Source: a virus
Strand: one strand, 5' to 3'
IMG/VR virus record: IMGVR_UViG_3300031576_000031
Location: 1,014 to 65,013 of that record
Length of the DNA: 64,000 nt
The notes under the pieces were generated by a model, which was not told the DNA's origin, made no database searches, and saw only the letters and a program-made list of their open reading frames with translations. Shown one piece after another: positions 1,959 through 56,806 of this stretch. The position numbers and the translations under genes were made by a program. Numbering within the stretch: the first letter of the stretch is position 1; the number at the start of each line of letters is the position of its first letter.

Positions 1959-1995
1959 TCTTATAGCCTTCTGGAAACTCTATTCACTTGGAGCA

Positions 1996-24143: not shown

Positions 24144-24971
24144 TTATCCATTGTTTATCCTTTCGATATATTCATTATTAAGCATTAACATCATCCGGTA
24201 AAGCGGGCTATCCTTAAAAAATTCAGCAATGGCCTTCATCTCTTTCGGTAGACACTTTCCACGTACTCCATCCTTTGCTTCTTTTAGATCCATATTCCAT
24301 TTGGTATTTACTGCCGATCTAACGGCTTCCCAATTAAACATTTCACCATCACATGAGCCCCCGAATTCCTGAGCTATAACGATCTCCATAAATCTATAAG
24401 CATTCTCGATGTTCTTCGACATAATGGCGGTTTTAGAATCAGTAGTAGCAATGTATTGTGGCTTATCCATAAAGTCAGTATAGAAGGCTACCGCTTCTGC
24501 GAGATCCTTTTTGTCATCACATCCCAGTACTCTACTGATATTAAAGACCCATTTTGTCTTATCATAAGGTACAAGACGATGAGGACAGAATGCTACTTTC
24601 AAGCCGGAATATTCGATATAGTCCAAAAGGCTGACTATATTCTTAGGTGGAACGGTTGATTCGATAATGATTAAGGGTAAATGATCTCTCTCATCGGGAT
24701 AAAGATTATTGATCTTAGCAATGACTTGGACTATTTGATCGTAAGTCCATACACAAATGAGATATATATCCGCCTCTGGCATATCTTTGAAGTCATATGT
24801 CTTATAGCCAAGAACGGAAAATTCTGTTAACTTTTCAAGATCGATATCAACTCCACTTAGCTTATAGGTTTGATTGAGTGCTAGATCGGTATCGATCTTC
24901 TCACCCAATGAAGTCAATACTGCCCCACCAATCTCACCGAGGCCGACGACCATTATCCTTCTCATGCTCAT
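24144..24971 (-). CDS. Nucleotide-sugar dehydrogenase (UDP-Glc/GDP-Man/UDP-ManNAc DH family), lacking the C-terminal domain
   Basis: VVGLGEIG Rossmann motif, IIESTVPP, FCPHRL, SKNIENAYR, GKCLPKE; only 275 aa. Confidence 0.8.
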   Translation of the reverse strand: MSMRRIMVVGLGEIGGAVLTSLGEKIDTDLALNQTYKLSGVDIDLEKLTEFSVLGYKTYDFKDMPEADIYLICVWTYDQIVQVIAKINNLYPDERDHLPLIIIESTVPPKNIVSLLDYIEYSGLKVAFCPHRLVPYDKTKWVFNISRVLGCDDKKDLAEAVAFYTDFMDKPQYIATTDSKTAIMSKNIENAYRFMEIVIAQEFGGSCDGEMFNWEAVRSAVNTKWNMDLKEAKDGVRGKCLPKEMKAIAEFFKDSPLYRMMLMLNNEYIERINNG

Positions 24972-25433: not shown

Positions 25434-25709
25434 CTAAAAAAATGGCGTCTCGCCTCTACACAGTTCCTCGTGATTGTCTGCGTGTTGTTCATAGCCCTCG
25501 ATCCATCTCCCACAACCCTTAGAACATTTCTTAGCCTTTTTAAGCATTGTATGATTGTAAAGAGGCTCGTGACGAATGATATGGCTACCCATCAGCTCAT
25601 ATTCGCCATCATTGAATTCCTCAAGACATTCTGGACACACCAGTTTGGTCTTGACAAATCTTTGGAAGTGATCGGTTGTCTCACGCCAAGAGCCGTATAT
25701 CTTCCTCAT
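25434..25709 (-). CDS. Cys/His-rich hypothetical protein
   Basis: CPEC...H and CSKGC...H...C. Confidence 0.6.
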   Translation of the reverse strand: MRKIYGSWRETTDHFQRFVKTKLVCPECLEEFNDGEYELMGSHIIRHEPLYNHTMLKKAKKCSKGCGRWIEGYEQHADNHEELCRGETPFF

Positions 25710-36800: not shown

Positions 36801-37422
36801 CATTTGTTAGAACATACTTCCTGCCCGCATTAACACATGCCTGATGGACGACTTTGTTAAGGTCATACTGGATATCCCAATCATCCAATGGCATCATCTC
36901 GCCATAGAAGTCTTCCTTGAAAGCATCGGAATAATCTTGGAATAACTTGATACCATCGCGGTTCTTGACGTTCCAGAACGGCGAAGATGAACATCCAGAA
37001 AGGATTACAACATTGCCAGCCCAACCGTTATCAATAGGCCAAGTTACAGGTAGGAACGCTCTCTTAGCCCTGCCGCTCTTACCAAGACCATAATTATTGG
37101 CATAGTTCAGGCCATTGATTAGTAATTCAAATCCCTTCTGGCTCTTGGCTAATGCCGTGAGATGGAGATTTTGTAGTTTCTTGTCTTCTTTGATCTTGTC
37201 GAACTCTTCGGCAAGATACAGCTCAACTCCGAAGATTGGTTTGACTCCATTAGCCTCACAGGCTCTCTTGTGGCGAATTACTCCCGACATCGAGCCATGG
37301 TCTGTTAAGCAGAGATACTCGTGTCCATTCTTCTTAGCTGTCTCGGCCAATGAGGTTATTTTGGCAGCACCATCCAAAAGCGATGCCTCGGAGTGGACGT
37401 GGCAATTAATGTACCTTCTCAT
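33775..37422 (-). CDS. dnaE: DNA polymerase III alpha (DnaE) with a C-terminal family-4 uracil-DNA glycosylase domain
   Basis: HVHSEASLLDG PHP start, GPARGSAGG, PDIDVD, KIDILGL, FNRSHAVAY; then CTDCDLRQGC, AEAPGYNED, GKSG, NVVHCKP, HPSSVL. Confidence 0.93.
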   Translation of the reverse strand: MRRYINCHVHSEASLLDGAAKITSLAETAKKNGHEYLCLTDHGSMSGVIRHKRACEANGVKPIFGVELYLAEEFDKIKEDKKLQNLHLTALAKSQKGFELLINGLNYANNYGLGKSGRAKRAFLPVTWPIDNGWAGNVVILSGCSSSPFWNVKNRDGIKLFQDYSDAFKEDFYGEMMPLDDWDIQYDLNKVVHQACVNAGRKYVLTNDIHYCGQEDWKIHELVICLGQHGMTWNNPHRWKFSTHRNYFRDGDDMYDSMLKMGMDSEVADNSIFNTNEVAEKCYFDLQKYPLDLPCPVKVEDENEYFLQQCAEGLKRRGLEGRDEYWIRLDKESKLIIKKGFVRYMLLVADVINWAKGQGIMVGPARGSAGGCLVSYLLGITEIDPIKHDLLFERFISEDRRDHPDIDVDIAAHERNLIERYLKQKYGDGNVAHVSTFSACYGRSALRDVSRIFEIPLQEVDVAAKSLIYRHESDARVLNVIEDTLESSKEFQGFAKKYPDVVMAASKLEGQIRGVGVHAAGYVVSNNSLLESNRCYLVSGTDGEKSINWDKDDLEDLGYIKIDILGLSTLSVIQEALILIRRNGTNLDLSKLELFDEKTYEAMGRGETATVFQINTPSLTSYCKELKPQSFEDVAALTALWRPGPIQAGQANDYILVRHGKKEPVYLSNGYKEIVQKTRGQLIYQEQISQLLVNLAGFTPAEADKIRKIIAKSKGIEKIREYSQRFIDGCVVNKSLSGEQAGILWEKLLGFGLYSFNRSHAVAYGLLTYWTMYLKIHYPTEYICAYLSHGSTDRESSEGITNLDSALREARRIGIEILGPDILESMSGWTVAGPKALRAGLQEVKYAGEKAKDEIFKLKSNGASFRTIDGFMGLVGRRTVNKRVIKSLLHSGAFDSLSDSDLYKRNFDEIYETYGTKEKHETAKIKAREMELEPIVENYLNYDGSIVTEIEDTCKDICKVLGENYEVVDGDIVSVVNRNTLNAYSHQDLTRVALIESNLRVIRNISPKREFLDSIRDAIKTCTDCDLRQGCKAPVPFEKGKQNVLIVAEAPGYNEDQKGKPLIGKSGQVLFSKLRDLGISRNSVYIDNVVHCKPQGNFLKSTDYIDGCRHLTTLFDIIRPILVLVLGNKSLYYFKGKDSGIMSLSGTTEWDKERKCWLTYCVHPSSVLHSNRDEMVGLFDKGLKEFKRVYSILGGEYEQDQSGLVRSGSERSDHF

Positions 37423-38107
37423 TGGCGTATTGCTTATTAAGACTATCTGAGGTTACAAAGAAAGTCAATGAATCAAGAACGTGTTCTGCTACAGAAAAGT
37501 ATTCATACTTATCGAAACGAATTAGAGACTCCTCATGTTGAAGGGTGTGCCTCCCTGATATCGCGTTATGTGGTCTATTGCGCAGGAAGATATCGTTAAC
37601 GGTTCCCAACAGATTTGTGGCATAATGATAGCTATCATCAATTGCAAAGGAATATGTCGGATAGTCATCAGCAAATAGGATCTTTCTGCAATAGTCGGCC
37701 TTATCCTTACAGAAACCAAGAGTATCAAACTTGTAGCCATTCTTGGCTAAGAAATGGGCTGTATCGCCAAAGACATTGGGATGATCCCATGTGGGCCTAC
37801 CGGTTAGGACATTGATTTTGAAACCCAGATTCTTAATGGTTTCAACGAATTCGATTGAGCCATTGATAGGCGACAACTTCCTGAGTAGCCCATTCTCATA
37901 GAACTTACTTACGATTCTAGTCCCTTTAGGACCATAGGTTGATTGAAGCTGTTCCTCCCATCCGTATAGTCTAGGGTCGGGCTCCCAATAGTGTCCGAGT
38001 TCTTCATTCACATACTTCAACCAGTAATCTTCAAAGTTCGCCAAGATGCCATCGATATCTATAATGGCTTGGCATTGATTCTTCTGGAAATAGGTATATT
38101 GTTTCAC
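37406..38107 (-). CDS. HAD-family 5'(3')-deoxyribonucleotidase-like protein
   Basis: IDIDGILANF, LTGRP, IDD. Confidence 0.8.
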   Translation of the reverse strand: MKQYTYFQKNQCQAIIDIDGILANFEDYWLKYVNEELGHYWEPDPRLYGWEEQLQSTYGPKGTRIVSKFYENGLLRKLSPINGSIEFVETIKNLGFKINVLTGRPTWDHPNVFGDTAHFLAKNGYKFDTLGFCKDKADYCRKILFADDYPTYSFAIDDSYHYATNLLGTVNDIFLRNRPHNAISGRHTLQHEESLIRFDKYEYFSVAEHVLDSLTFFVTSDSLNKQYANEKVH

Positions 38108-40409: not shown

Positions 40410-41435
40410 TTACATTTCACTCCCCTCTTTTTCATAGCTCATTTCTCCTACAACCTTTTCTTTCCTTGCCAATCTTAAATCGCTCTCCATCATCATAGTT
40501 AATAGCTGATTATATGAAGTCCTTGGTTCCCAGCCTAGAACGTTTTTAGCTTTGCTATAATCGCCTAATAGGCAATCAACCTCTTTTGGTCTTAAATATT
40601 TCGGATCGAATTCGACATAGTTTTTCCAATCCAATCCCACATAATCAAAGGCATCCTTGAGAAAAGTCTCAACTGTATTGGCTATTCCGGTAGCAATAAC
40701 ATAATCGTCTGGCTGGTCATGCTGAAGCATGAGGAACATGGCTTCTACAAAGTTTCCGGCAAAGCCCCAATCTCTTTTAGTCCTCAGATTTCCAAGATAG
40801 AGCCTCTTTTGTAATCCCAATGAGATCCTACTGGCCGCTCTGGTAATCTTACGAGTAACAAATGTCTCGGCCCTTCTTGGACTCTCGTGATTAAAGAGGA
40901 TGCCATTACAAGCAAAGATGTTATACATATCTCTGTAGGCTACGACTGAATAATAAGCCGCAACCTTAGCGGCAGCATAAGGACTACACGGCTTGAATTG
41001 AACTTGCTCATTCTGTGGTGGCGGAGATGACCCAAACATCTCTGAGGAAGACGCCTGATAGAGTCTGGCGGCTGGGATTATGTCTCTAATGGCCTCTAAG
41101 AGTTTTAGAACCCCACCAGCATTAACGTCAAAAGTATACTCTGGAATATCAAATGATACCCTTACATGGGATTGTGCTGCTAGATTATATATTTCATCTG
41201 GTTGGACCTCCTCCAGAATCTTGCGGATTGTAGTAGTATCCGTAAGATCGCCGAAATGGAGAAAGAAGTTTGTATCTCCGCCATGAGGATCATTATAGAG
41301 ATGATCTATTCGAGAAGTATTGAACGTCGATGCCCGTCTCATTACTCCGTGTACCTGGTATCCTTTTGACAGTAACAACTCTGACAAATAACTTCCGTCT
41401 TGCCCAGTCACGCCGAATATCAGGGCTCTCTTCAT
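40410..41435 (-). CDS. gmd: GDP-mannose 4,6-dehydratase
   Basis: [49 protein letters not shown]. Confidence 0.96.
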
Positions 41436-43595: not shown

Positions 43596-45007
43596 CTCAT
43601 CCCCACCTCACCACACCACTCGATCTCGAAGCCTTCCCTCTTATAAAGCTCAATCCGCTCGACAGAATGTTTGGCTAAATATTTGTTACCGGAATGAATA
43701 TAATCAATGATATCAACGGTATTGTCCCCGCCTTTCTTTCTCAAAGCCCTACCGATCCTCTGAAGCTGTTGTCCGTGGCTTAGGCCACCGGCTGAAAGGA
43801 TAAGAACGTTTATTTCTGGGATATCGACCCCTTCGGATAGGATCTTACTAGCCACCAAGACCTTTACCTCGCCATTCCTGAATTTTTCTATTCCACTTCG
43901 TCTCTTATCACTCTCCGCTTGACCATGTAGGAACAAATTCCTTACTCCCTTGTTCTCCAGCTCTGAGCTTATTAGACGACCCTGATTGATTTTTTCGACC
44001 AAAATAAGTATCCTTTTCCCTCTTTTGTACCAATCGTAGGCTTGAGTCGCTATAAGAGACGAATATTTAGTATTATACCGAATCATGGCGTCATAGGCTT
44101 GACGATATGGCAAATTGTTAGGCTCGTAATTCAAACAATAAAGATGAATCTTTGGCTTTGCGCTCCAACCTGACTCAATATTATGAGCATTCTTACGCTC
44201 CTGAAGGATTTCGCTTCCTGTCGCGGCGAACATCTTGAACAGCTTCAGCCGTTCTCTAGGTGGACTACCAGTCAATGAGAATCTAAATGGGGCATCACAC
44301 GCCAGACAAAGTGAATACCACGAATTACTCTGGGCATGGGCGGCTTCGTCTACTAATAGCACCTTGAACTTGTTCAACCACGCCTTCTTCTTGGTATACA
44401 TCAGGGCGTGAAGAGATTGAACCATTGCCACTGTTAGGCTCTCAGACTCTATGTTCTTACCATCCCCGAATATTCCAGCTTTTTTGCCAGTTCTCAAAGA
44501 ATAACGTTCTGAGCATTGATAGAGCAATTCCTTCCGATCCACCAGCCATAGCGTAGGGAGATTATAACACTCCACCAATGCTGCGCACACCTCGGTCTTG
44601 CCCGAGTTTGTGGGCAAGAGGATGGCTCCTCTTGACTTTATGGTAGCGTTCTGGATTGCCTGTCTTTGAAACTCAGCTAGCCTAATTCCAATGAGTTCTA
44701 TATCATTCGCCTTTATGATGGCGTTCCTTTTAACGTCTGAGTACGTATCTAACGTATCATCGATTATTGGAATATCGCCTACGATCTCTGTGGCGTAGTT
44801 CATTAGGCCAGTAGGAAATTGACCGGTCTTGACGCTATAGAAATGATGTCTACCATCCCAAGTTCCTCTCGCCATGCGATATCTTTGTGAATATTGTATC
44901 CCGGGTATCACGCAAGAGAGATGTTGATCTAGCTTGTGTCTTAATTCAGAGGATTCGATGACTAGCTTAGACCAGACTGGAGACGCTTCGATCTGCATTA
45001 GAAACAA
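43592..45007 (-). CDS. SF2 DEAD/H-type helicase (UvsW-like)
   Basis: LPTNSGKT, DEAAH, LTGSP, LSEGVDIP, QRIGRALR. Confidence 0.92.
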   Translation of the reverse strand: MFLMQIEASPVWSKLVIESSELRHKLDQHLSCVIPGIQYSQRYRMARGTWDGRHHFYSVKTGQFPTGLMNYATEIVGDIPIIDDTLDTYSDVKRNAIIKANDIELIGIRLAEFQRQAIQNATIKSRGAILLPTNSGKTEVCAALVECYNLPTLWLVDRKELLYQCSERYSLRTGKKAGIFGDGKNIESESLTVAMVQSLHALMYTKKKAWLNKFKVLLVDEAAHAQSNSWYSLCLACDAPFRFSLTGSPPRERLKLFKMFAATGSEILQERKNAHNIESGWSAKPKIHLYCLNYEPNNLPYRQAYDAMIRYNTKYSSLIATQAYDWYKRGKRILILVEKINQGRLISSELENKGVRNLFLHGQAESDKRRSGIEKFRNGEVKVLVASKILSEGVDIPEINVLILSAGGLSHGQQLQRIGRALRKKGGDNTVDIIDYIHSGNKYLAKHSVERIELYKREGFEIEWCGEVGMR

Positions 45008-45917
45008 ACCAATCGTAAGTCTTCTTCAGGCCGTAATCGAGGGAGAATCTGGGGGCCCATCCCAAGCACCTACCAGCCCTAGTGATATCAAGCGCTCTTG
45101 CCGGTTGACCATTGGGCTTTGATATATCCCAAACGATATCTCCATTAAAACCTACTATAGTTTTAATTTTTTCTGCGAGTTCTTTAATGCTGACCTGTGC
45201 CCCAGTCCCAACATTTATTGGATATGGACTCCCGGTAAAGTATAGTGCCTCTTCCAATACCTCAACGAAATCGTCTACTAGGAGAAAATCCCTTGTTGGA
45301 GAGCCATCGCCCCAAAGTTCGACTGTATTTTTACCATTATCCTTGGCGGTATGGAACTTTCGGATTAATGCCGGAATGACATGGGATGTTTCTAAACTCA
45401 TGTTATCACCTGGACCAAACAAGTTAGTTGGCACCAGATATGTACTCTCAACTCCATATTGCTTAAAGTAGGCCAAACAACCCATTAATAATGACAATTT
45501 AGCTATCCCATATGGAGCATTTGTTTCTTCCGGCATACCATAGAAGAGATTCTCCTCTTTGAATGGAACTTTTTCATCTCTCTGATATGAGCAAGTTGAA
45601 CCCACAAACACCACTTTAGCATCATAATTCTTGGCAGCATCTAGCACATTGATGCCCATTAATAGGTTATCCCGCCAGAATGCCCCTGGGGCTCTCATAT
45701 TTGCCCCTATTCCGCCGCATTTGGCGGCAAGGTGTATAATGATGTCCGGGGTATAGTGACCTACAACGGCATCTGTGGCCTTTGGGTCCTCAAGGTCATA
45801 CTCTGAGCTTCTAAACCTGAAGACGTTCTTATAGCCACGGATCTTGAGATAGTCATAGACATGAGAACCCACAAAGCCATAACCGCCAGTAATTAGGATA
45901 TTTATATTACTTTCCAT
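44967..45917 (-). CDS. fcl: GDP-L-fucose synthase
   Basis: ITGGYGFVG, HLAAKCGGI, GSTCSY, YGIAK, HVIPALIRKF, WGDGSPTRDFL. Confidence 0.93.
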   Translation of the reverse strand: MESNINILITGGYGFVGSHVYDYLKIRGYKNVFRFRSSEYDLEDPKATDAVVGHYTPDIIIHLAAKCGGIGANMRAPGAFWRDNLLMGINVLDAAKNYDAKVVFVGSTCSYQRDEKVPFKEENLFYGMPEETNAPYGIAKLSLLMGCLAYFKQYGVESTYLVPTNLFGPGDNMSLETSHVIPALIRKFHTAKDNGKNTVELWGDGSPTRDFLLVDDFVEVLEEALYFTGSPYPINVGTGAQVSIKELAEKIKTIVGFNGDIVWDISKPNGQPARALDITRAGRCLGWAPRFSLDYGLKKTYDWFVSNADRSVSSLV

Positions 45918-47165: not shown

Positions 47166-47538
47166 TCTTCTTCTTCCTTAAATTACCTATTACTTCTGCA
47201 AGATCATTCTTGATTCCGTCAAACCCACGACCTCTTATAGCCCTACGGGTAATCGGAATATAAGACCAACCGTAATTCCCCCATGATTCTATTTTTTTAT
47301 TACAAGAGTCAATCTGATCGGCGTAAATCAGCGCGATTGCAACCTTCTTACTTGGAATCCCAAGGTGAGCCACACTATCTATCCCGATCCAGACCGGAGA
47401 TTGATACTGGAGCCCCATTTCTTCGCAAGCCCGTTTGATAAGGTCCAATTCGGAACTTTCAAAGGCCATTTTCCCAAGAGTTCGTCTTATCTCTGGGGGA
47501 ACGGATAGCATGTCAATGGCCTCTTTGAAAATGCCCAT
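47146..47538 (-). CDS. Hypothetical protein, possibly a degenerate PD-(D/E)xK/Vsr-like fold
   Basis: 130 aa; fold guess from spacing only. Confidence 0.5.
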   Translation of the reverse strand: MGIFKEAIDMLSVPPEIRRTLGKMAFESSELDLIKRACEEMGLQYQSPVWIGIDSVAHLGIPSKKVAIALIYADQIDSCNKKIESWGNYGWSYIPITRRAIRGRGFDGIKNDLAEVIGNLRKKKSGRKAN

Positions 47539-47783
47539 TATTTTCTCGTATCGGGAAGACAGAACCAGCCCTCGGCCAAATCAACTACACCCTCAACTTC
47601 CTTCCCATCTTTATCTACTACCCATACCTTAACGTTTTTCAGGGTCTCCCGAAGGCGTACCGGTTCCCCGTACGGTACTAGGATCGTTCGGACGTGGGTG
47701 CAACCTAGAAAGGAGGCGCTCCCTAAGACCATCCCGAATAGCGCCATCCTCAACAGTGTTCGTCGTAGACAGTTTGATTGCAT
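47538..47783 (-). CDS. Small lipoprotein, o-spanin-like
   Basis: Hydrophobic leader with FLGC lipobox; overlaps the 3' half of the upstream gene in another frame. Confidence 0.6.
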   Translation of the reverse strand: MQSNCLRRTLLRMALFGMVLGSASFLGCTHVRTILVPYGEPVRLRETLKNVKVWVVDKDGKEVEGVVDLAEGWFCLPDTRK

Positions 47784-47865
47784 TTGCTATAATCTCCACT
47801 ATAACCGGCCCACATTCCGCAAGGACAGCTCCAACAAAACGTCCTAGTACCGCCGCTAGATTCAC
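47629..47865 (-). CDS. Small membrane-anchored protein, i-spanin-like
   Basis: N-terminal hydrophobic segment; overlap arrangement like Rz/Rz1. Confidence 0.45.
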   Translation of the reverse strand: MNLAAVLGRFVGAVLAECGPVIVEIIANAIKLSTTNTVEDGAIRDGLRERLLSRLHPRPNDPSTVRGTGTPSGDPEKR

Positions 47866-48081
47866 TTACTTACCCGCGTTTACATCTTCAGATCGCTTGT
47901 CATTATCCCTACTAAACAGTAGCCCTACCGCGCCCGAAGCGGCGGTGAAGAACGCCATCCAACTAGGACTCGTTGCGGGATCACTGTCCAACAGCGGCAT
48001 TAGAACCAATGCCGATAGCGACGAGAATAGCGCCAGTACGCCACACAGCGTCGTCTTCCAACTCATCTTACTCAGATCCAT
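47866..48081 (-). CDS. Holin-like protein with two TM segments
   Basis: SWKTT...two hydrophobic helices separated by DSDPAT, charged C-terminus RDND. Confidence 0.6.
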   Translation of the reverse strand: MDLSKMSWKTTLCGVLALFSSLSALVLMPLLDSDPATSPSWMAFFTAASGAVGLLFSRDNDKRSEDVNAGK

Positions 48082-48100
48082 AACTCATCCTCCTATAAAA

Positions 48101-48337
48101 TTAATGTTTGGGTTCTAGTTTCTGTTCAATCCTATCAAGCCGCCTAATTATCTCTGCATAGGCAGTAGAATGTTGTGCGGTAATAATTTCAAGATTGCGT
48201 ATACGAATATCATGCCCGCGAATATCGGTCCAGACAGTCGCCAGCCCAGAGCCCAAGAGAAAGCCAACAAGAGAAAAAAGCGCCCAAACAACCCTTTTGC
48301 CGTCATACCATTTATTCCCATTATTCTCACTTTCCAT
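48101..48337 (-). CDS. Single-TM coiled-coil protein (holin/XhlA-like)
   Basis: One TM helix followed by a heptad-like RLDRIEQKL. Confidence 0.55.
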   Translation of the reverse strand: MESENNGNKWYDGKRVVWALFSLVGFLLGSGLATVWTDIRGHDIRIRNLEIITAQHSTAYAEIIRRLDRIEQKLEPKH

Positions 48338-48353
48338 ATCATTCCTCCTACTT

Positions 48354-49079
48354 TTACTTGGAGGATAAAATTCCTCTTAGGGAAGTGTCTATCGGAATAC
48401 CATTCTTAATGCAAAGCTCAATGGCGTCGGGATTCCATTGACCTCTAGTAATGGCGGAGCATATATACGACAGCACATACTTCTTGTCTCTATAAAGACT
48501 GTAAAACTCGCCTTCTGGTCTGTTTAATGTTCCTTCGATCTCGAATGATGCCGCCGAGACCCCTACATTGCTTAGTATGTCTTTTAGGACATCGGCTCTC
48601 CATATCGCCGCTTGGCAGGAGACCCTATAATCGGCGCTCTTGGCTATTCTACCTAGCAAATAGTTATATTCTCCATCTGGTCCTGGGCACGGATAAAGTC
48701 TTACACAAACCCTTTTGGTATCGGCTTTTATAAACTCAAGTGCATTCTCAATTCCATCGCTATCTACTTCGTCGCAGATGAAGAAATCATCCTGCATAAG
48801 AAGAACATAATTATCCTCTTCGTCTGCTCCTTCACCCGTAAGAACTTCTAACCCCTTTAATAGATTACCTGCCCACCCCAAGTCCCTACCGAGTATCACG
48901 GTACTTATTGGTTCTTTTGTATTGTCTTTATGGTCCGATATAAACCATAGATCATATTTACAATCAGGCCAGAACTTCTTAAATAGCCTATAAAACGGGA
49001 CTACTGTATCACGATAAGAATAACAGGTAGGGACAACGACATTCACTTCAAAACCCTCACCTTCAATTCTTTTTCCCAA
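48354..49079 (-). CDS. Glycosyltransferase-like (GT-A fold) protein
   Basis: VVVPTCYSY start, LLMQDDF acidic motif; within the GT cluster. Confidence 0.65.
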   Translation of the reverse strand: MGKRIEGEGFEVNVVVPTCYSYRDTVVPFYRLFKKFWPDCKYDLWFISDHKDNTKEPISTVILGRDLGWAGNLLKGLEVLTGEGADEEDNYVLLMQDDFFICDEVDSDGIENALEFIKADTKRVCVRLYPCPGPDGEYNYLLGRIAKSADYRVSCQAAIWRADVLKDILSNVGVSAASFEIEGTLNRPEGEFYSLYRDKKYVLSYICSAITRGQWNPDAIELCIKNGIPIDTSLRGILSSK

Positions 49080-49912
49080 CGATGAATGATATTGAGTTTA
49101 GGCTCCACTCTGGAGTAGTAATTCCTCAATATTGCCTGATCTCCGATATTATTACGGTTACCAATATATGTCCGATAGATTGCTCCATAGGCTTCTTGGT
49201 CGAAGAGGCTTGAATATAGATCATGATCTATTGGATAGAAATATAAGATTTCATCCTTTTTCGGCGGCAGTACAAACCATTTATGATCCTGTTCACCAAA
49301 GAGGAATAAACCATCCTTCCACGGCATCGGACACTCTACTACGCCCCCCTTGGCAATTCTACTTAACTCTCCAGCAGCGGCTTCTGGATCGTTAAGATGC
49401 TCAAAGATATGAAACGCGGTGGCGAAATCAAACTCTTTATCTTTGAATGGCATCGTTTCGCAAACAGTAGCCTTGACGAATGTTTGATCCGGCAATCTAT
49501 CGCCAGCAAACTTATCATAGCAATCTACTATGATATTTGCTCTAGGCCAAGGATTAGGCCCACAGCCTACATCAATACAATTCCATTCTTTCGGAATCTC
49601 TTCTTTGATTGAATATTCCCACCTATCTACACACTTTACCTTCTTAAAATAGAGCAACCTTTGATGCTCATTAATAAGAGAAAATTCGTATATGAAGCCG
49701 TACTCCTCGGCTAGTCGTCTTGCAACATCAAGCTCTAATCCATCGATATCAATATACAAAGTTTCTCCGGCCTTGGTATCGCGGTAAAGATTGCGGAGAA
49801 TCTCACGAGTCAAAACGATATTGGTATGATCTAGTTCCGGGGCATCCTTCACTTCAATAGCCCTTCGGACTTTAGCTTTTCTTCTACTGCCAGTGTCATC
49901 AGATCGGGCCAC
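49043..49912 (-). CDS. Class I SAM-dependent methyltransferase
   Basis: IDVGCG, MPFKDKEFD, FHIFEHL. Confidence 0.85.
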   Translation of the reverse strand: MARSDDTGSRRKAKVRRAIEVKDAPELDHTNIVLTREILRNLYRDTKAGETLYIDIDGLELDVARRLAEEYGFIYEFSLINEHQRLLYFKKVKCVDRWEYSIKEEIPKEWNCIDVGCGPNPWPRANIIVDCYDKFAGDRLPDQTFVKATVCETMPFKDKEFDFATAFHIFEHLNDPEAAAGELSRIAKGGVVECPMPWKDGLFLFGEQDHKWFVLPPKKDEILYFYPIDHDLYSSLFDQEAYGAIYRTYIGNRNNIGDQAILRNYYSRVEPKLNIIHRWEKELKVRVLK

Positions 49913-50772
49913 TTATCTCTGAACAGCCACTTCTCGAAGTATTCCCGTCCCCTCTTACCCATTTCAATGATCTGTTCATCGGTATGATCTCTTAGCCATT
50001 GTTTGATAAGGTTACCAGCATTGATTGAATCTTGCACGCCATAACGGATCGTACAGGAGCCATAATCGATCTTATCTGCAAATGGTGCCACATAATCATC
50101 GCAGAATAGCACAGGAACTCTACCTGCGGACATGGCCTCCCAAAATCGATATGGATACACATTATGGATTGAAGCTGGTGTTAATTGAAGACGACATTGT
50201 TTCATGCTGTTTACGAACCCTTCGCGTCTAGTCTTCGCCAATGCCGGATCGTCGCGCTCTGTATAGCCCCAAAATTCCTTATAGCAAGCTAGATCGGCTT
50301 CATCTCCAAACCTATTTCTAACACTATCCGTAGCATTAACTCTAACGTTGCTGCTCAACCAGCCATGAAATCCAACATCCTTCTTGAACCCTCCATCTGG
50401 AATTGAGACACAATTCTTGAAATCTTCTACGGGCCAACTCCAAGGAATACTAACTGGCATTTTGCGCTTCATCCAACCCTTAAGATTGCATCTAATAAAC
50501 ATTCCATTAGGATATTTATCAGTTTGGAATTCAAAATCGCTGCAATCGTATGACACAAACCGTCTCTCATCTATCCCATAATATTCAATAATTTTTGTCC
50601 ATAGCGCAGGGGTCAATGAGTCAGTTTCTCTTGGCGATAGCGGGACAATTATTGCGTCGGCTTTCTCAATATCCTTTATCTTCTCACCACTCAATCTTAG
50701 ACCAGAATGGACTTTATCCCCACAATAGCCCAACCTTGAGAGTTCCGGCCAATCAATCTCATAAATCTTCAT
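49849..50772 (-). CDS. Exostosin-like (GT47) glycosyltransferase
   Basis: VGFHGW, MKQCRLQLTP, YRFWEAMSAGRVPVL...PF. Confidence 0.75.
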   Translation of the reverse strand: MKIYEIDWPELSRLGYCGDKVHSGLRLSGEKIKDIEKADAIIVPLSPRETDSLTPALWTKIIEYYGIDERRFVSYDCSDFEFQTDKYPNGMFIRCNLKGWMKRKMPVSIPWSWPVEDFKNCVSIPDGGFKKDVGFHGWLSSNVRVNATDSVRNRFGDEADLACYKEFWGYTERDDPALAKTRREGFVNSMKQCRLQLTPASIHNVYPYRFWEAMSAGRVPVLFCDDYVAPFADKIDYGSCTIRYGVQDSINAGNLIKQWLRDHTDEQIIEMGKRGREYFEKWLFRDKWPDLMTLAVEEKLKSEGLLK

Positions 50773-51668
50773 CTACATTTCTCTCCAACCAATTTGCCAA
50801 ACATCTTCATCTCGTAATTATATAATACTTCTTCATAGGGTTCATAGATATATTTGATTACATCTGGCGTTAGAGGATAGCCGGTTCTAAAAGACGGATT
50901 ATTCTTACGTCTATGTTCGTGGCCGTGGTACATCACCAATGGGAATCCGCCATCCTCATTAATCCTGAATATCCAGATCGTATCCTTATCCCTATCATAC
51001 ACAGTATTATAACCCCTAATATGCCAAGGACCATTCCCGGCTCCGTCTGGAAGAATAGTAAGCCTATTGCCAAGTTCATCCGGCCACGAATCAAGATAGA
51101 ATTGGTCTCCCATCTGACCGCGCTCAGTCCCACAATATTCGAGAACCTTATAGGCCCAATTGGAGAGTATACCTAGTCCAGTTTTATTCTTCTTGAAAGT
51201 CACCCAAGAAACATTAAAGACCCCATTTGGTAGAAGTCTAACCTCATCTTCCTTTAGGAATCTATGAGGAACTACTGCAACATCCCCGTTAAATCCTCGG
51301 AATCCTAGCTCTGGATCATTAAAAAAGAATGTATCAGAGTCCAAATATGTGATGTCATCATAAGCAACTTCCTTCTCAGACACATCATGAGTCCATAAAC
51401 TCGCCAGCCCCCAACAGAAATCTCTATGCGATCTGTATTTCTTGAGGAGCTTCATTTGAGAGGATTCAAACTGAGAGTACGGAGTAACTAGGAATAGTCC
51501 GTTGCCTTCAATTGTCCTGCTTATCTCACCAATCTTGCCAGTAATTTCGTCGTTCAAACATAAACCATGAATTACAAAGTTACTCTTACTGCGCTTGCAA
51601 AGGGAGTCATATAGAGCTAGAGCTTTAGGCGCATAATAGTCATCAAAGACCGTTGTATAATGCCTCAT
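50769..51668 (-). CDS. GT-A fold glycosyltransferase
   Basis: YTTVFDDYY, YLDSDTFFF (DxD), GVFNVSWV, GDQFYLDSWP. Confidence 0.8.
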   Translation of the reverse strand: MRHYTTVFDDYYAPKALALYDSLCKRSKSNFVIHGLCLNDEITGKIGEISRTIEGNGLFLVTPYSQFESSQMKLLKKYRSHRDFCWGLASLWTHDVSEKEVAYDDITYLDSDTFFFNDPELGFRGFNGDVAVVPHRFLKEDEVRLLPNGVFNVSWVTFKKNKTGLGILSNWAYKVLEYCGTERGQMGDQFYLDSWPDELGNRLTILPDGAGNGPWHIRGYNTVYDRDKDTIWIFRINEDGGFPLVMYHGHEHRRKNNPSFRTGYPLTPDVIKYIYEPYEEVLYNYEMKMFGKLVGEKCR

Positions 51669-52402
51669 AGTTTCACTGTCATGATGGCATAATGACCATA
51701 AGTTCCAAACTCCTGATGTTGATACTCGAATACAATATTTCTATTAATCACCCTCAAGCAATTCTTTTCAAGTTCCTTATAGAACTCCTGCATTCCAAAC
51801 CATATCTCAAGACACGGCACGTCATATGCCTCCTTGGTAAAGAACTTTGTTGTTGTATTCGTAAGCAAAGGAGTTCTATGGAACATTACATACTTTTTTG
51901 AGACTCTTACTGCTTCCCGTATAGCTCTCTTCCAATCGAAAAGATGGATCATGCAACAACCTGAAATCACCAAATCGAACCAACAATCATTATACGGCAG
52001 ATTTAGCGCATCTCCAATATCAAACTTGATCCCGGGGAATTTTTCCTCCGCAAACTTCTTGAATGCTTTGGAATAGTCTAGCGCGGTATATTCCCATTTA
52101 TAGTCGTAATGCCCATAGCCTAATTTATCCATAAGATAACCGTAGTACCCACTAGATGCTCCTACCTCAAGGACATTATTAATTGGCTCTTTTCTTATCG
52201 GGTATAGTGAATCTGCAAATGCTCTGAATGGTGGCACCTCGTAATACTTACCCTCATCAATCTTGACCAATTCTTTAGCAACTGATATATCCCATTGCTT
52301 CTGTGGAATGGAGGCGTCTTGCCAAGCGTTGCTCATCTTAGCCGCTTCTTCAATCTCTTCCTTGGTTTTAAGTTCCGTATAGCTCACGTTTAATACTCCC
52401 AC
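51665..52402 (-). CDS. Class I SAM-dependent methyltransferase
   Basis: LEVGASSGYY, ALDYS, GDALNLPY...FDLV. Confidence 0.88.
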   Translation of the reverse strand: MGVLNVSYTELKTKEEIEEAAKMSNAWQDASIPQKQWDISVAKELVKIDEGKYYEVPPFRAFADSLYPIRKEPINNVLEVGASSGYYGYLMDKLGYGHYDYKWEYTALDYSKAFKKFAEEKFPGIKFDIGDALNLPYNDCWFDLVISGCCMIHLFDWKRAIREAVRVSKKYVMFHRTPLLTNTTTKFFTKEAYDVPCLEIWFGMQEFYKELEKNCLRVINRNIVFEYQHQEFGTYGHYAIMTVKL

Positions 52403-52556
52403 AGTGTCTATGATCCGTTATGAAGTCGGTCACGATCTCAATCAGATCCGTCCCTGACATCGGGTATTGTTCCTCAATGAACTCATAGTCATGGTAACAA
52501 CTATCGCACCATAGATACGGATGGCTGTTGTCGTTTACATCGAAGATAATCACCAA
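52368..52556 (-). CDS. Small hypothetical protein
   Basis: 62 aa with CDSC and HRHC. Confidence 0.45.
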   Translation of the reverse strand: MVIIFDVNDNSHPYLWCDSCYHDYEFIEEQYPMSGTDLIEIVTDFITDHRHCGSIKRELYGT

Positions 52557-53641
52557 ACCATCCTATTGAAAGTGTCAGATACACTCTTGAGGATATTTTT
52601 GTAGGTATGATCTCTCATAGTCCGCTTATGACCAGCTTCCGCGATAATCTTCCTTTCATCATCATGCGCTAAATAATACTTCAGTTTGTCAATTAAATCG
52701 TCCTTGTTGGCATAAGTTACACATTCCTTACCAACCTCGAAGTAATCATTGATATTCTTACTGAGTTCAGTCATTAGCATTGCCCCACATCCTGTGCTTT
52801 CGAAGCACCTCATATTATTGGTATATCCAGCCGCGATCTCACCGTGCCTGTTGACCACAATTTTACTAGAACTATATATCTTATATTGATCTAGTCCCCA
52901 AGCCTCACCTTGGTAAGTTCTAAAGAGGTCTTCAGTTAATTCATTTCCTATAGAATAGCCCCACCATTTGAAAGTAGGAATTTCCTTGGCTATAAGGTCT
53001 AAACACTCAGTCCCGGATTGCCAATGACCCTCAGAACGTCCACAGTTGCCATTTAAGGCCCTAGAATTGACACCACCCACAAAAGATACGTCTTTGTCAC
53101 GAAAATGGCTAGAATTGACTCCTAGAGCGTCTAGCAGGCATTCCCCGCCGAAGCCTATCTGCAAAAACTCACTTCTAACACCCAAAGCCTCGATTTTAGG
53201 CAAATAATGAGGAAAGGATGTAAAAATCACATCAAAGGCTCCAATCCTGTCATCGCCTGCCCATGGGCAGCTATGTTGAGCAGCTAAGACCTTGACACCC
53301 ATACGCTTAAAGTATTTTAGATGGGATATGGTAAAGAAGCTAAGATCCTGACAGTATAATATATCTGGTTGGTAATCAAGAACTTGCCTTACTGTGGTAT
53401 CCTCATCATGGGAATAGGAATATCCACGTTCTTTCATATAGAGCTTCTGACCAACGGTATCATTCCCGATGATATCTATCGCATCATAGCCGTAACTCTT
53501 AAATGCTTCGGAATAATAGTCCGCTGTGCCAAATTTAAGCGATATTAATCCCGACAATCTGTCGGGATACTTGTCGAAATTACAAATGAAGTATCTCAAG
53601 ACCGCAGGATAATAGGTATCAACAAAGGCTATTTTAAGCAT
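52550..53641 (-). CDS. CgeB-like GT-B glycosyltransferase
   Basis: DVSFVG, YSSSKIVVNRH, NMRCFESTGCG, GHKRTMRDHTY. Confidence 0.85.
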   Translation of the reverse strand: MLKIAFVDTYYPAVLRYFICNFDKYPDRLSGLISLKFGTADYYSEAFKSYGYDAIDIIGNDTVGQKLYMKERGYSYSHDEDTTVRQVLDYQPDILYCQDLSFFTISHLKYFKRMGVKVLAAQHSCPWAGDDRIGAFDVIFTSFPHYLPKIEALGVRSEFLQIGFGGECLLDALGVNSSHFRDKDVSFVGGVNSRALNGNCGRSEGHWQSGTECLDLIAKEIPTFKWWGYSIGNELTEDLFRTYQGEAWGLDQYKIYSSSKIVVNRHGEIAAGYTNNMRCFESTGCGAMLMTELSKNINDYFEVGKECVTYANKDDLIDKLKYYLAHDDERKIIAEAGHKRTMRDHTYKNILKSVSDTFNRMVW

Positions 53642-54810
53642 GGCAAAACCCTATTGCACGATGCCACTTTGTTTAGGGATTCTGCTACGTATTGAACTTC
53701 ATCTTCCGTCATCCCATACCAACAAGGGATTGATAGAACACGCTCGGTCAACCAGCCCGTCATTGGGAGTCTCTTAGCGGAAAAACTATAGGACTGTCTT
53801 GAGGCCATTGTCGGATAATGAACTTTTGTACAAATACCCATTTCCTTGAGTTCTCTGATTACTCTTGAACGGTTATCAACTACTACTGTAAAAAGATGAT
53901 AATTACATGATTGGTCAAGGATACGATGAAGCAACTCTTCTTTTAGCACATTATGGTACTTTTCAGCGATCTTAAAGCGTTGGTTTGTTGCCTCCTGAGT
54001 ATTACTCATCCTCTTCAGAAGAATTGCCGCCTGTATCTCGTCTAATCTGCTATTTCTGCCAAACGGGTAGATTTGTTCATATGAATCATTAAGACCATAA
54101 TCCCTAAGCCTTCTAAATCTCTCGGCACAGAACTCTGAGGAAGTCACTATCATCCCACCATCACCAAGAGCGCCCAAAGGCTTTGTTGGATAGAATGAGA
54201 AACAGGCCGCATCACTACTTAACGAGAGTTCCTTGCTAGTGCCAGCGGCTTGAGCGGAATCTTCAATGATGATCTTATTGTATCCTACTAATTGACGCAA
54301 AAAGTTGGTTTGAAATCGTTGTCCATAAAGGTGAACCGGCATAATGGCATAACAATCATCCAATCTATCATCACTGACTATCTTATTTGGGTCTAGCAAA
54401 CCATCTATTTCAACATCAACAAATATCGGATTAGCGCCTATGGTCAGAATTGCCGATACTGTCGCTGCGGCGCTATTAGCCTGAGTCATTACGCCATGAC
54501 CAGCTTTGACCCCACAACCTCTAAGGGCAATTTCCAAGGCATCAGTGCAGTTCCCCACTCCAATACCGTAGGAATCCAATCCAACGGTCCTTGCAAATGC
54601 GGTCTCAAATTCCTTTACCTTGCTGCCAAGGATGAAATCCCGAGATTCAAAAGTTTCATCCATCGCCGTCCTAATAAAATCCTCATCAAGAAGGAGATGG
54701 GGGCTGATATTATTGAATGGTACTTCCATAAGATTTGAATTCATCAAAAGACCGGATATAATCCAACTCGTCATAGGGGGCATCGGCCAAAACAAGGATC
54801 TTGGTCTCAA
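53629..54810 (-). CDS. DegT/DnrJ/EryC1/StrS PLP-dependent sugar aminotransferase (FdtB/QdtB-like)
   Basis: PVHLYGQ, IEDSAQA, SFYPTKPLGALGDGG, NSRLDEIQAA; true start probably downstream of 54810. Confidence 0.92.
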   Translation of the reverse strand: MRPRSLFWPMPPMTSWIISGLLMNSNLMEVPFNNISPHLLLDEDFIRTAMDETFESRDFILGSKVKEFETAFARTVGLDSYGIGVGNCTDALEIALRGCGVKAGHGVMTQANSAAATVSAILTIGANPIFVDVEIDGLLDPNKIVSDDRLDDCYAIMPVHLYGQRFQTNFLRQLVGYNKIIIEDSAQAAGTSKELSLSSDAACFSFYPTKPLGALGDGGMIVTSSEFCAERFRRLRDYGLNDSYEQIYPFGRNSRLDEIQAAILLKRMSNTQEATNQRFKIAEKYHNVLKEELLHRILDQSCNYHLFTVVVDNRSRVIRELKEMGICTKVHYPTMASRQSYSFSAKRLPMTGWLTERVLSIPCWYGMTEDEVQYVAESLNKVASCNRVLPCLK

Positions 54811-55135
54811 TCTCGCAATAACAGATGCCCAACCAATTCATGGGTGGAACATAAAGATATCTATTATTCACTGAGTCCATCGCAAAGGTTGTATGTTCAA
54901 CATCATTCGGAGTCAAGATATCAGCGAGGAGATGACCCTCCATACATATCACCAATTGTTTCAACTCTCTGTGCGCATGGTTCCCCCTGACCGAATCTTT
55001 CTTTAAGCCTTCAATCCAGAACGCCCTTTGTGGTTGGAATGGATGACCATCGACAATAGTTAAGACGCCACTATCGGTTTTTTGTGACTTCAATTCGATC
55101 AAATAAGCTCGCTCAAACATCGCTGGCCTTCCCAA
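54710..55135 (-). CDS. FdtA/QdtA-like cupin (dTDP-4-keto-6-deoxyglucose 3,4-isomerase)
   Basis: RGNHAHRELKQLVICMEG, LYVPPMNW, LVLADAPYDELDYIR. Confidence 0.88.
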   Translation of the reverse strand: MGRPAMFERAYLIELKSQKTDSGVLTIVDGHPFQPQRAFWIEGLKKDSVRGNHAHRELKQLVICMEGHLLADILTPNDVEHTTFAMDSVNNRYLYVPPMNWLGICYCEIETKILVLADAPYDELDYIRSFDEFKSYGSTIQ

Positions 55136-55721
55136 AACGAAGCATCATCGCTGGATAGCAATGAATGTTTCTCTCTTCCATCATATACAAAAATCCATAT
55201 TCTTCTATCAAACGGATAAGTCCATCCTTAACGTAGCTCATCATATGGTATCCATAATCACTGTTTCTCGGTCCCAAGAGATGACGAATATAGAATTCAT
55301 TTGAGGTAGAGACGAACTTCCTCAATGTTTCTTCATGATCTGGTACATCGATTCTAAGAACTCCACCATAGTCAAGAACTCTATTCATTTCTTTCAAGGC
55401 CAGTCTGGCCTCTGTAATTGATAGATGTTCAAATGATTGTCTAGCGAGGAGTTCGCTCGCCAATTTAGCTTTAACTGGCAGGTTTAAGAATGAACCATAG
55501 GCATCGCACACGTATTCATCGTTCTTAGGCCCTACAAGAAAGTCATTCTGTCCAATATCGTGGCGGGAATAATAATGTTGTTCATCGGTTATGTATTTTT
55601 CGACAAGATCCGGCCTATCGTTCGATAGAAAGCACCTGGACGATTTAAGATCGATGTTCAAGTAGTCTTTAAGATAGACCGTGCCCGCGCCGCAATGGAT
55701 TCTTATAGGATCTCGTGACAC
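55113..55721 (-). CDS. SAM-dependent methyltransferase-like protein
   Basis: IHCGAG...YLNID, FEHL, RVLDYGGVLRIDVPD. Confidence 0.75.
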   Translation of the reverse strand: MSRDPIRIHCGAGTVYLKDYLNIDLKSSRCFLSNDRPDLVEKYITDEQHYYSRHDIGQNDFLVGPKNDEYVCDAYGSFLNLPVKAKLASELLARQSFEHLSITEARLALKEMNRVLDYGGVLRIDVPDHEETLRKFVSTSNEFYIRHLLGPRNSDYGYHMMSYVKDGLIRLIEEYGFLYMMEERNIHCYPAMMLRFGKASDV

Positions 55722-56392
55722 TTGAACCTCTCATGGACCTTTTGCATATCCTTGAGAAACGGTCCATATTTAGCCATTAGTTTAGCCGCATCATGAGGTT
55801 GATGTGATTCGTTTTGAGTCCTAATCCTATCCGCGAAGGGCTTATGGAGGACTCTAGCCGATGGAATTGGGATTACTGGTCTTCCAGCCAAAAACGACCT
55901 GAAGGCAATGGAGTTGTCACCGCCATAGAAGTAAAGAATCTCGTCAAACCATCCAATCGTATTCCCGAATTCTCTACTTATAATCCCAAAATTGGCATAT
56001 GGCATCCCCTGATACCAATCAACTCTATAGCCGGACATCCCTTGATTGGCCCAATATAGGGCTCCAATACCTATCCATTTATTCCTCTCCATCATCCTTA
56101 CCGCCTCAAAAGCCCAGCCTTCCTGGACCTCAACATCATCGTTCAGCCATATCACCCATCTCCCTTCCGCAAGTTCAAACGCCTTATTGTATCCTGCTAT
56201 ATGTCCAAGGCGAGGATTCTCTTCTATAATCTTGATATTTCTAGGAACATCTTGGAGTTCGAGTCTTATATCGCCCGCATCACTAACAATCATCTCCCAA
56301 GGGACAGTTGTATGCCTTATTACGCTATTGAGCATTGAGAGGAATTGTTGTTTCCTGTTTAATGTCCCAACAATAATGCTCAAATCAACCAT
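55703..56392 (-). CDS. GT2-family glycosyltransferase
   Basis: SIIVGTLNR, IVSDAG, WLNDD, YGGDNS. Confidence 0.88.
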   Translation of the reverse strand: MVDLSIIVGTLNRKQQFLSMLNSVIRHTTVPWEMIVSDAGDIRLELQDVPRNIKIIEENPRLGHIAGYNKAFELAEGRWVIWLNDDVEVQEGWAFEAVRMMERNKWIGIGALYWANQGMSGYRVDWYQGMPYANFGIISREFGNTIGWFDEILYFYGGDNSIAFRSFLAGRPVIPIPSARVLHKPFADRIRTQNESHQPHDAAKLMAKYGPFLKDMQKVHERFKCHEIL

Positions 56393-56407: not shown

Positions 56408-56806
56408 CTAGAGGAACTCCCCGTATGTCTTTAGTGTTGTGATTATATTCGGGTCGATTTGTTCAAACCTACCACCTTTTGGCGTAATGGTAACTTTAAC
56501 AATCGGCCTGACAATCCACATAAAATCTGTTACGGCATCCGGCGAAGGTGTTGTATTGAGGCCGAGAAGCCTTACACTATTACCGCTTTTTGTATATATC
56601 GAACCGAACATTCCCCATGTTATTCTGAAGAAGCCATGTCCGGTAATGAAAAACCATGTTACTTTAACTCCAGTAGAGATCGCCCACATAAAGGCCGTTG
56701 CGGCATCTGGTGACGGGGTTGTATTGAGTGCGAAAAGCCTCGTACTATTGTTTGTAGTTGCTACTTTTGCCAAAACACTGAATGGGGTAATTATATCAAC
56801 CATCAA
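56408..56806 (-). CDS. Hypothetical protein with an internal duplication
   Basis: RLFALNTTPSPDAATAFMW...VKVT and RLLGLNTTPSPDAVTDFMW...VKVT. Confidence 0.55.
   Translation of the reverse strand: MMVDIITPFSVLAKVATTNNSTRLFALNTTPSPDAATAFMWAISTGVKVTWFFITGHGFFRITWGMFGSIYTKSGNSVRLLGLNTTPSPDAVTDFMWIVRPIVKVTITPKGGRFEQIDPNIITTLKTYGEFL

Follow-up and report, generated by a model that had tools for sequence, protein, structure and literature searches.

What is the target of ten glycan-assembly enzymes which a phage keeps directly behind its tail genes? The question is raised by a stretch of 64,000 nucleotides, here called the window (bases 1014-65013 of the 73,433-bp IMG/VR virus record IMGVR_UViG_3300031576_000031), which comes from an uncultured phage of a cave metagenome and in which ten open reading frames (ORFs) at 48354-56392, all on the minus strand, make up a glycan-biosynthesis cassette. 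The answer to which we lean, with somewhat more confidence than doubt, is that the phage would use its own late-expressed, cytoplasmic cassette to decorate a virion protein with a methylated hetero-oligosaccharide. This reading rests on the position of the genes, on the solubility of the enzymes and on analogy with mycobacteriophages, with the CgeB/CgeA pair of the spore crust and with the chloroviruses.

The identities and folds of the cassette enzymes are settled. Five glycosyltransferases (GTs), three class I S-adenosylmethionine (SAM) methyltransferases (MT1, MT2 and MT3), one FdtA/QdtA-type isomerase and one QdtB-like aminotransferase are encoded by genes which overlap or lie a few bases apart (Table 1), the only larger gap, of about 160 nt after the CgeB-like gene, being occupied by a 61-aa ORF. 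A first examination of the DNA, made from its letters and ORF translations (the sequence-only reading), had listed this same set, with GTs of at least four kinds, and these assignments were borne out, the GTs by Pfam, AlphaFold2 (AF2) models and the ESM Atlas, the remaining enzymes by Pfam, the ESM Atlas and Protein Data Bank (PDB) matches. In the case of the ketoisomerase, the Pfam score is 92 bits against a cut-off of 23, the PDB matches are WxcM-like, FdtA and QdtA proteins (E 1e-17 to 1e-12), and an HxH motif (H-A-H), a candidate catalytic histidine pair, can be read from the translation. The aminotransferase finds its best PDB match in QdtB (3frk, E 3e-55), with ArnB, perosamine synthase and others behind it, and the lysine of the SFxxxK motif, which is the pyridoxal phosphate (PLP) lysine, is present; since no NCBIfam equivalog cut-off was reached, its regiochemistry is given here as presumptive.

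Among the GTs, the CgeB-like protein scores 96 bits against a cut-off of 25 over residues 223-352. The AF2 model of the GT47-like protein (15 homologs, pLDDT 93) was compared with the PDB by Foldseek, and the best 16 matches were all human exostosins (EXT1, EXT2 and EXTL3; E 1e-11 to 1e-8, TMq 0.59-0.68); as its Pfam Exostosin_GT47 score (26.9, E 4e-6) falls under the cut-off of 33.4, it is classed as a distant member of GT47. The model of the 230-aa GT-A protein gave 203 PDB matches at E<=1e-3, all of them GT-A enzymes, including B4GALNT1, SpsA, TarP and GnT-I, and its weak GT2 match in Pfam (E 8e-4) is below threshold. Pfam alone gives no match for MT1, the Methyltransf_11-type fold of which is established by the ESM Atlas (features 0.97-0.99, structure TM 0.9), with neighbours that are almost all viral. 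None of the cassette proteins contains a hydrophobic 19-mer above a Kyte-Doolittle value of 1.6, that is, a membrane segment, and no flippase, polymerase, ABC/Wzm/Wzt transporter or priming phosphoglycosyltransferase was found by Pfam or NCBIfam among these proteins or their neighbours, so that the earlier statement that export and polymerization genes are missing holds.

The cassette belongs to the structural run of the phage, as had been stated. All genes from about 20 kb to the end of the window lie on the minus strand, and transcription reaches the cassette through genes for a head-tail adaptor, a neck protein and the tail tube, then for tape measure and Dit, then for a giant FN3-domain protein of 1730 aa and, lastly, for four small proteins of unknown kind, the final one ending 15 nt ahead of the first GT gene. 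The possibility that the block is a host-derived segment mis-assembled onto a phage, to which the bacterial surface-glycan relatives of its genes might lend some colour, can be dismissed. In fact, the same genes are called in the same order in a second, independent assembly of the same phage (an ENA contig of 80,291 bp), syntenic relatives come from other samples, the GC content of the cassette (0.41-0.43) is that of the remaining window, and the block runs into the phage genes on either side through overlapping gene ends.

The synteny survey that had been proposed as a check was carried out by an alignment-based scan of IMG/VR, which gave 20 loci onto which all window proteins were mapped by BLAST; a conserved core emerged. 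Four relatives form, with the window's phage, what is here called lineage A: they are two contigs of 84 kb and 97 kb and the IMG/VR loci L027 and L029, with the same gene order at 45-50% identity, the 84-kb and 97-kb contigs sharing the series Dit, giant tail protein, cassette, Fcl, helicase and DnaB. The core consists of GT2, MT1, the CgeB-like GT, often MT2, the GT8-like GT, the GT47-like GT, the 230-aa GT-A protein and sometimes MT3, and it is present in at least 20 IMG/VR contigs; homologs of GT2 (34-50% identity) and of MT1 (42-60%) occur in all of these loci. The pair of FdtA and DegT is confined, among the mapped loci, to lineage A, and is thus a lineage-specific accessory.

Lineage B is represented by contigs of 40-67 kb. 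Here the core has, at one end, the genes for portal, a collagen-like protein and Phage_connect_1 and, at the other, those for an extra GT2, a head-closure protein, tail tube and tape measure; MT2 is also present in these cassettes and MT3 in some of them. In a divergent sub-lineage (L025) the core directly follows the capsid and head-tail adaptor genes, and in L022 its neighbours are a MuF-like head gene on one side and a tail-tube-like gene on the other. Comparison of virion structural proteins between lineages A and B gave no detectable similarity (best E 0.11), whereas the cassette proteins of the two are 33-55% identical. Therefore, the cassette has moved between unrelated phages, repeatedly settling among virion assembly genes. 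Its accessories for donor sugars vary: RmlC-like protein plus a reductase in L013, a GFO/IDH/MocA oxidoreductase plus DegT in L031, and a GNAT protein, a GT4 and a nucleotidyltransferase in L058.

As regards its spread, a family profile of the 230-aa GT-A protein recovered 603 clusters (50% identity) at E<=1e-30. Among 50,697 GenBank phage records, no match was found at the DNA level and no record with the cassette was found by tblastn with GT2, the CgeB-like GT and the GT47-like GT. Exact-peptide searches of IMG/VR returned nothing for the transaminase and one distant locus for Dit.

Table 1. Features of the cassette and of other parts of the window discussed in the text; status refers to the survey of related loci.
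Feature	Status	Position	Strand	Basis or remark
GT2-family glycosyltransferase (GT-A), 229 aa, first cassette gene	core	55703..56392	-	Pfam PF00535, E 3e-15
MT1, class I SAM methyltransferase, 202 aa	core	55113..55721	-	ESM Atlas, Methyltransf_11 viral clusters
FdtA/QdtA-type dTDP-4-keto-6-deoxyhexose 3,4-ketoisomerase, 136 aa	accessory, lineage A only	54710..55120	-	Pfam PF05523, E 3e-26
PLP-dependent sugar 3-aminotransferase-like protein (QdtB-like), 366 aa	accessory	53629..54729	-	Pfam DegT PF01041, E 6e-74, 250 bits
CgeB-like GT-B glycosyltransferase, 363 aa	core	52550..53641	-	Pfam Glyco_trans_1_2 (PF13524), E 2e-27
61-aa ORF, role unassigned		52368..52553	-	Gene call in ENA assembly
MT2, class I SAM methyltransferase, 240 aa		51665..52387	-	Pfam Methyltransf_11/25/31, E 1e-8 to 1e-12
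GT8/Nucleotid_trans-like GT-A glycosyltransferase with DxD motif, 299 aa	core	50769..51668	-	ESM Atlas, TM 0.9 to bacterial glycosyltransferases
Exostosin (GT47)-like GT-B glycosyltransferase, 307 aa	core	49849..50772	-	AF2 model and PDB structure matches
MT3, class I SAM methyltransferase, 269 aa		49043..49852	-	Pfam Methyltransf_11, E 2e-9
GT-A fold glycosyltransferase, family without Pfam model, 230 aa	core	48354..49046	-	AF2 model, pLDDT 92
Tail-tip or fibre protein with FN3 domain, 1730 aa		58152..63344	-	Directly after Dit; homologs in relatives 38-44% identical
Four small ORFs, one hydrophobic segment each, one with lipobox		47538..48337	-	Directly after cassette; candidate holin/spanin lysis cassette
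Gmd, GDP-mannose 4,6-dehydratase		40410..41435	-	TIGR01472, 480 bits against equivalog cut-off 415
Fcl-like GDP-4-keto-6-deoxymannose epimerase/reductase		44967..45917	-	Best NCBIfam match GDP-L-fucose synthase, 275 bits, below cut-off 500
NDP-sugar dehydrogenase-like protein, 275 aa, short (lacks C-terminal domain)		24144..24971	-	Truncated form

The same genes have relatives in bacteria, and this brings in a different target. The enzymes could act on lipid-linked intermediates of a host surface glycan (O-antigen, S-layer or wall glycan) with the carrier and export machinery of the host, for instance to block superinfection or the re-adsorption of progeny to debris. In Thermoleophilia, Chloroflexota, Burkholderiaceae and other groups, the bacterial genes most similar to the CgeB-like and GT8-like pair occur, together with DegT, Gmd and Fcl, in surface-polysaccharide loci, one of them with Wzm/Wzt, and these loci show where the cassette genes originated; the donor-sugar modules differ between cassettes, as they do in O-antigen loci; and cyanophages and pelagiphages carry genes of lipopolysaccharide (LPS) type. 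Nevertheless, genes for priming, flipping and export were not found, and late structural operons of lytic-looking phages, in four contexts, would be the wrong time and place for a change which needs export and growth. Moreover, the CgeB-like GT has 1249 homologs, the best hundred of which share 38-59% identity with it and come for the most part from contigs of 30-100 kb, the top ones viral, and the phage homologs are closer to one another than to any bacterial one (<=39%). Host-surface modification, which the sequence-only reading had named as an alternative, is accordingly kept as an unlikely one.

Decoration of the virion would proceed as follows. The FdtA-like enzyme would isomerise host dTDP-4-keto-6-deoxyglucose, the QdtB-like enzyme would transaminate the product to a dTDP-3-amino-3,6-dideoxyhexose, and host GDP-mannose would be converted to GDP-fucose by the phage's Gmd and Fcl; the five soluble GTs, of different folds, would each add one linkage onto a protein-bound glycan, and the three methyltransferases would cap hydroxyl groups. 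No lipid carrier or export step would be involved, and none would be necessary, because the acceptor is assembled in the cytoplasm. We infer the substrates, the order of the steps, the late expression and, above all, the acceptor. That the resulting coat would be a shield, as the earlier name of a glyco-shield system implied, is a guess about function.

In favour of this scheme, the cassette is tied to the tail genes by the 15-nt gap, its genes overlap internally, and lysis-like membrane proteins stand behind it. Further support comes from the survey, because the same enzyme core is embedded in the head-tail joining genes of unrelated phages. Several points weigh on the other side. Position within a structural operon is guilt by association, and in bacteria the CgeB-like/GT8-like pair belongs to loci of the O-antigen type, which have ABC transporters and build on a lipid-linked acceptor. 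A scan for sigma-70 promoters and intrinsic terminators between 45.5 and 64 kb found sites at no more than the level of shuffled sequence, and so says nothing on transcription units. Finally, the acceptor was not identified: capsid, tail tube, Dit, tape measure, giant protein and small neighbours were searched for Ser/Thr-rich windows, collagen-type G-X-Y runs and C-terminal tails, and no Ser/Thr-rich tail or mucin-like tract was found in the capsid, the tail tube or the other virion proteins. What did turn up is unconvincing: the 1730-aa protein has one stretch of 30 residues rich in Thr, and a 421-aa protein of the head module has runs rich in Gly.

The outcome of this search also speaks for the idea of another cytoplasmic target, such as a non-virion protein of phage or host, a small molecule or a free oligosaccharide. 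The methyltransferases are generic, and soluble sets of GTs and methyltransferases also make glycosylated natural products and mycofactocin-type glycans, weak NCBIfam matches to MftF and MftM being present. Against it stand the repeated, independent placement of the core inside virion assembly operons and the failure to find genes for scaffold, peptide or aglycone biosynthesis nearby. Such a target is considered rather unlikely, though it deserves to be borne in mind.

Two further proteins were considered as possible acceptors. In lineage B, a collagen-repeat protein (G-E-K/R/P triplets) is encoded just ahead of the cassette, flanked by the portal and head-tail connector genes (L031:6459-7580, L032:5489-6610 and L013); it is rich in G-E-K/R and not in G-X-T, and is a candidate head-fibre acceptor in that lineage. 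In the window, a 132-aa ORF at 56408-56806 (minus strand), immediately upstream of the first GT gene, carries the motif L-N-T-T-P-S-P-D-A twice, about 70 residues apart. No homolog of it was found in the relatives, and it may be a lineage-specific protein or a non-gene, its motif being acceptor-like as a possibility only.

The sequence-only reading had also placed Gmd, Fcl, a sugar dehydrogenase and one more GT elsewhere in the DNA. The first three are there, the dehydrogenase in a short form, while the additional GT was not located inside the window; a candidate stands only outside it, after the capsid gene. This is a 236-aa GT2-like protein (L002:8596-9306, minus strand, equal to G000:C1:71595-72305) with a D-x-D motif and GT2 models below threshold, for the family profile of which (23 homologs) GmaR is the only match of solved structure (E 1e-5). 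GmaR is the flagellin O-GlcNAc transferase of Listeria (PMC9638930). Homologs in two relatives (L062:10001-10771 and L063:10001-10735) directly follow the capsid gene and precede the neck genes, and BLASTP showed no similarity between the 236-aa protein and the extra GT2 of lineage B. A complex prediction with capsid residues 100-444 gave a score of 0.20 and a mark of 0.34, which is no verdict either way. Taken together, the protein is a weak candidate for a priming, protein-directed GT of the head module. Between it and the capsid gene lies an HNH/endonuclease VII gene (L002:9309-9983, minus strand, equal to L010:9324-9998), probably a mobile homing endonuclease, because it is not at that site in L062 and L063.

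As to the sugars, the FdtA-like and QdtB-like enzymes predict a dTDP-3-amino-3,6-dideoxyhexose, of gluco or galacto configuration, as had been expected from the FdtA and DegT genes, and Gmd and Fcl predict GDP-fucose; the Fcl-like gene is kept downstream of the cassette across lineage A. RmlA/RmlB and GDP-mannose synthesis are absent from the phage, which consequently needs host precursors, including dTDP-4-keto-6-deoxyglucose. The locus had been called self-contained, and this was wrong. No N-acyltransferase (FdtC/QdtC) was found in the phage. In the more distant cassette L058, a fusion of MT1 with FdtA and, after DegT, a fusion of GNAT with a methyltransferase (L058:1225-2199 and L058:9453-10514) suggest that MT1 can act near the steps which make the nucleotide sugar and that this phage N-acetylates its amino sugar. 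Genes similar to IMP dehydrogenase/GMP reductase (25706-26704) and to deoxyribonucleotidase NT5C (37406-38107), both on the minus strand among the replication genes of the window, may contribute to the supply of purines or GDP-sugar precursors.

The product had further been described as a methylated amino sugar. This does not follow from the methyltransferases, since MT1, MT2 and MT3 are each found too in cassettes without FdtA/DegT. PDB sequence searches gave generic class I matches only for the three, none of which is close to the N,N-dimethyltransferases TylM1 or DesVI, and N-methylation of the amino sugar is thus unsupported; the three are better read as O-methyltransferases of the glycan than as N-methylases of the amino sugar.

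The genes for Gmd and Fcl stand among those for replication, and a small DNA methyltransferase-like gene is nearby, observations that agree with another proposal, namely that the glycan is added by the GTs to the phage's DNA as a hypermodification, of the kind seen in T-even phages and in the MT/TET/GT clusters of Pyle et al. According to a preprint on such systems, phage GTs related to LPS enzymes glycosylate 5-hydroxymethylcytosine (5hmC), and the clusters can adjoin structural genes (bioRxiv 10.1101/2023.12.21.572611). DNA glycosylation is unlikely here because the usual enzymes for a hydroxymethyl handle are missing: no match to PF00303, PF02511 or PF12851 (thymidylate-synthase-like hydroxymethylase, ThyX and TET/JBP) was found in the 73-kb record, and none in the head module of the ENA contig. 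Furthermore, a glycan made by five GTs and three methyltransferases would be far beyond any known DNA modification in size, and the lineage B cassette is found among head-tail connector genes. Modification of DNA, the second alternative of the sequence-only reading, is thus weakened to the point of being very improbable.

A wider interpretation of the survey is put forward tentatively, as a possibility short of even confidence. The cassette may be a mobile, phage-specific glyco-coat module, which moves among unrelated soil and subsurface siphoviruses, always into virion assembly operons, which builds a methylated hetero-oligosaccharide on virion proteins and whose swappable donor-sugar modules generate a serotype diversity like that of O-antigens, 3-amino-3,6-dideoxyhexose and fucose being used here and rhamnose-type or other amino sugars elsewhere, with the GmaR-like GT2 as primer. 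If decoration of the virion holds true, a glycan coat would be a common feature of uncultured environmental phages (a single core family comprises about 600 clusters), and the coats would have an elaborate chemistry of amino-dideoxy, deoxy and methylated sugars that varies by lineage. This would bear on phage adsorption and stability, on recognition by hosts and grazers and on the immunogenicity of therapeutic phages. In addition, several of the enzyme families have no Pfam model and could provide a toolbox for glycoengineering, and ten soluble enzymes with a handful of candidate acceptors offer a cheap and concrete set of tests.

The surroundings of the cassette complete the picture. The window opens with the portal and TerL genes (3-3648, minus strand), and the head module missing from the IMG/VR record is supplied by the ENA contig (L010), which bridges the portal and the capsid and neck genes; the map of the phage closes, roughly, as a circle of about 83 kb, and the CheckV completeness of 53% is for this reason an underestimate. 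Among the small membrane ORFs behind the cassette, the one at 47629-47865, with an N-terminal hydrophobic segment, overlaps the lipobox (FLGC) ORF at 47538-47783 in a different frame, and the pair resembles overlapped spanins behind two holin-like genes, a possible lysis function suggested by sequence; no endolysin was recognised near 47538-48337. Beyond them follow a metallophosphoesterase, Fcl, an SF2 helicase and replication genes. Sequencing runs of RNA were searched for the phage sequence, and no run gave a match. In the head module, genes for S-adenosylmethionine decarboxylase and spermidine/spermine synthase (L010:4840-6059) lie between portal-MuF and the prohead protease and are kept in L062 and L063; polyamine synthesis encoded in the head module perhaps plays a role in DNA condensation. 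The head module of one relative holds a 536-aa ADP-ribosyltransferase toxin-like protein (PF03496, L062:5470-7080). A QueA-like gene (Queuosine_synth, PF02547) lies between Dit and the giant tail protein in two relatives (L004:414-1088 and L063:17785-18486), and the window's phage is without it.

To our knowledge, glycosylation of phage virions has been shown experimentally for a few mycobacteriophages only. Outside the phages, chlorovirus PBCV-1 makes a methylated, fucose-containing capsid glycan with a machinery of its own (A064R and others, with virus-encoded GMD and GMER). Virus-encoded cytoplasmic GTs, a methyltransferase and a GDP-fucose pathway are common to both systems, although PBCV-1 belongs to an unrelated virus lineage with a eukaryotic algal host, and the one resemblance noted is that of the GT47-like protein, which has a chlorovirus GT at rank 47 of its structure matches, as a generic likeness between GT-B folds. 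With the FdtA/FdtB and QdtA/QdtB pathways of S-layer and O-antigen synthesis the phage shares an adjacent isomerase and transaminase, with best PDB matches to WxcM-like, FdtA and QdtA proteins and to QdtB, respectively; in contrast to those pathways, it lacks RmlA/RmlB and FdtC/QdtC, although the relative L058 has its GNAT fusion. The ABC-dependent loci of Thermoleophilia/Solirubrobacterales and other bacteria likewise place CgeB-like and GT8-like genes side by side, often with DegT, Gmd and Fcl, whereas the phage adds GT2, MT1, the GT47-like GT and the 230-aa GT-A protein, and carries none of the export genes or membrane GTs of the bacterial loci (Wzm/Wzt). The clusters for DNA hypermodification (MT, 5mYOX/TET, GT) resemble the cassette in having recruited GTs of LPS type, sometimes near structural genes, according to the same preprint (bioRxiv 10.1101/2023.12.21.572611), and differ in their C5-MT/TET pair and hydroxymethylase, which are lacking here.

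A further parallel is the spore crust of Bacillus subtilis, where CgeB is reported to glycosylate the crust protein CgeA (Thr112) inside the mother cell, CgeD and the sps genes taking part too (PMC13577073). In both cases a Glyco_trans_1_2 enzyme accompanies GT2s and a DegT-type transaminase, and a protein shell self-assembles in the cytoplasm without membrane export; the spore crust, however, is a cellular system, and in the phage protein the match to the Pfam model is confined to the C-terminal 130 residues, while a search of the phage's genes turned up nothing like CgeA. As for the mycobacteriophages, those of cluster O (Corndog type, with an O-methyltransferase gene and then three tandem GT genes) and also Che8 glycosylate their capsid and tail-tube subunits, according to PMC11600133 and PMC12619734, citing Freeman 2023. 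These systems, as outlined there, have in common with the present one phage-encoded soluble GTs and a methyltransferase, with no export machinery; their glycan is attached, in the same accounts, at the C-termini of capsid and tail tube, which here show no Ser/Thr-rich extension. Virus-encoded glycosylation of virions is a known kind of system, from which the cassette differs in having no detectable similarity to the mycobacteriophage genes (no mycobacteriophage match at E<=1e-3 in the tblastn search with the three GTs, Corndog and Che8 included), in its larger size (five GTs and three methyltransferases), in nucleotide-sugar enzymes of its own and in being common to other, unrelated lineages of uncultured phages, where it is known from genes. 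Specific to this locus are the tail-distal position of the cassette, the modules for 3-amino-3,6-dideoxyhexose and fucose, and the one defined core which it has in common with lineages whose virion genes are unrelated.

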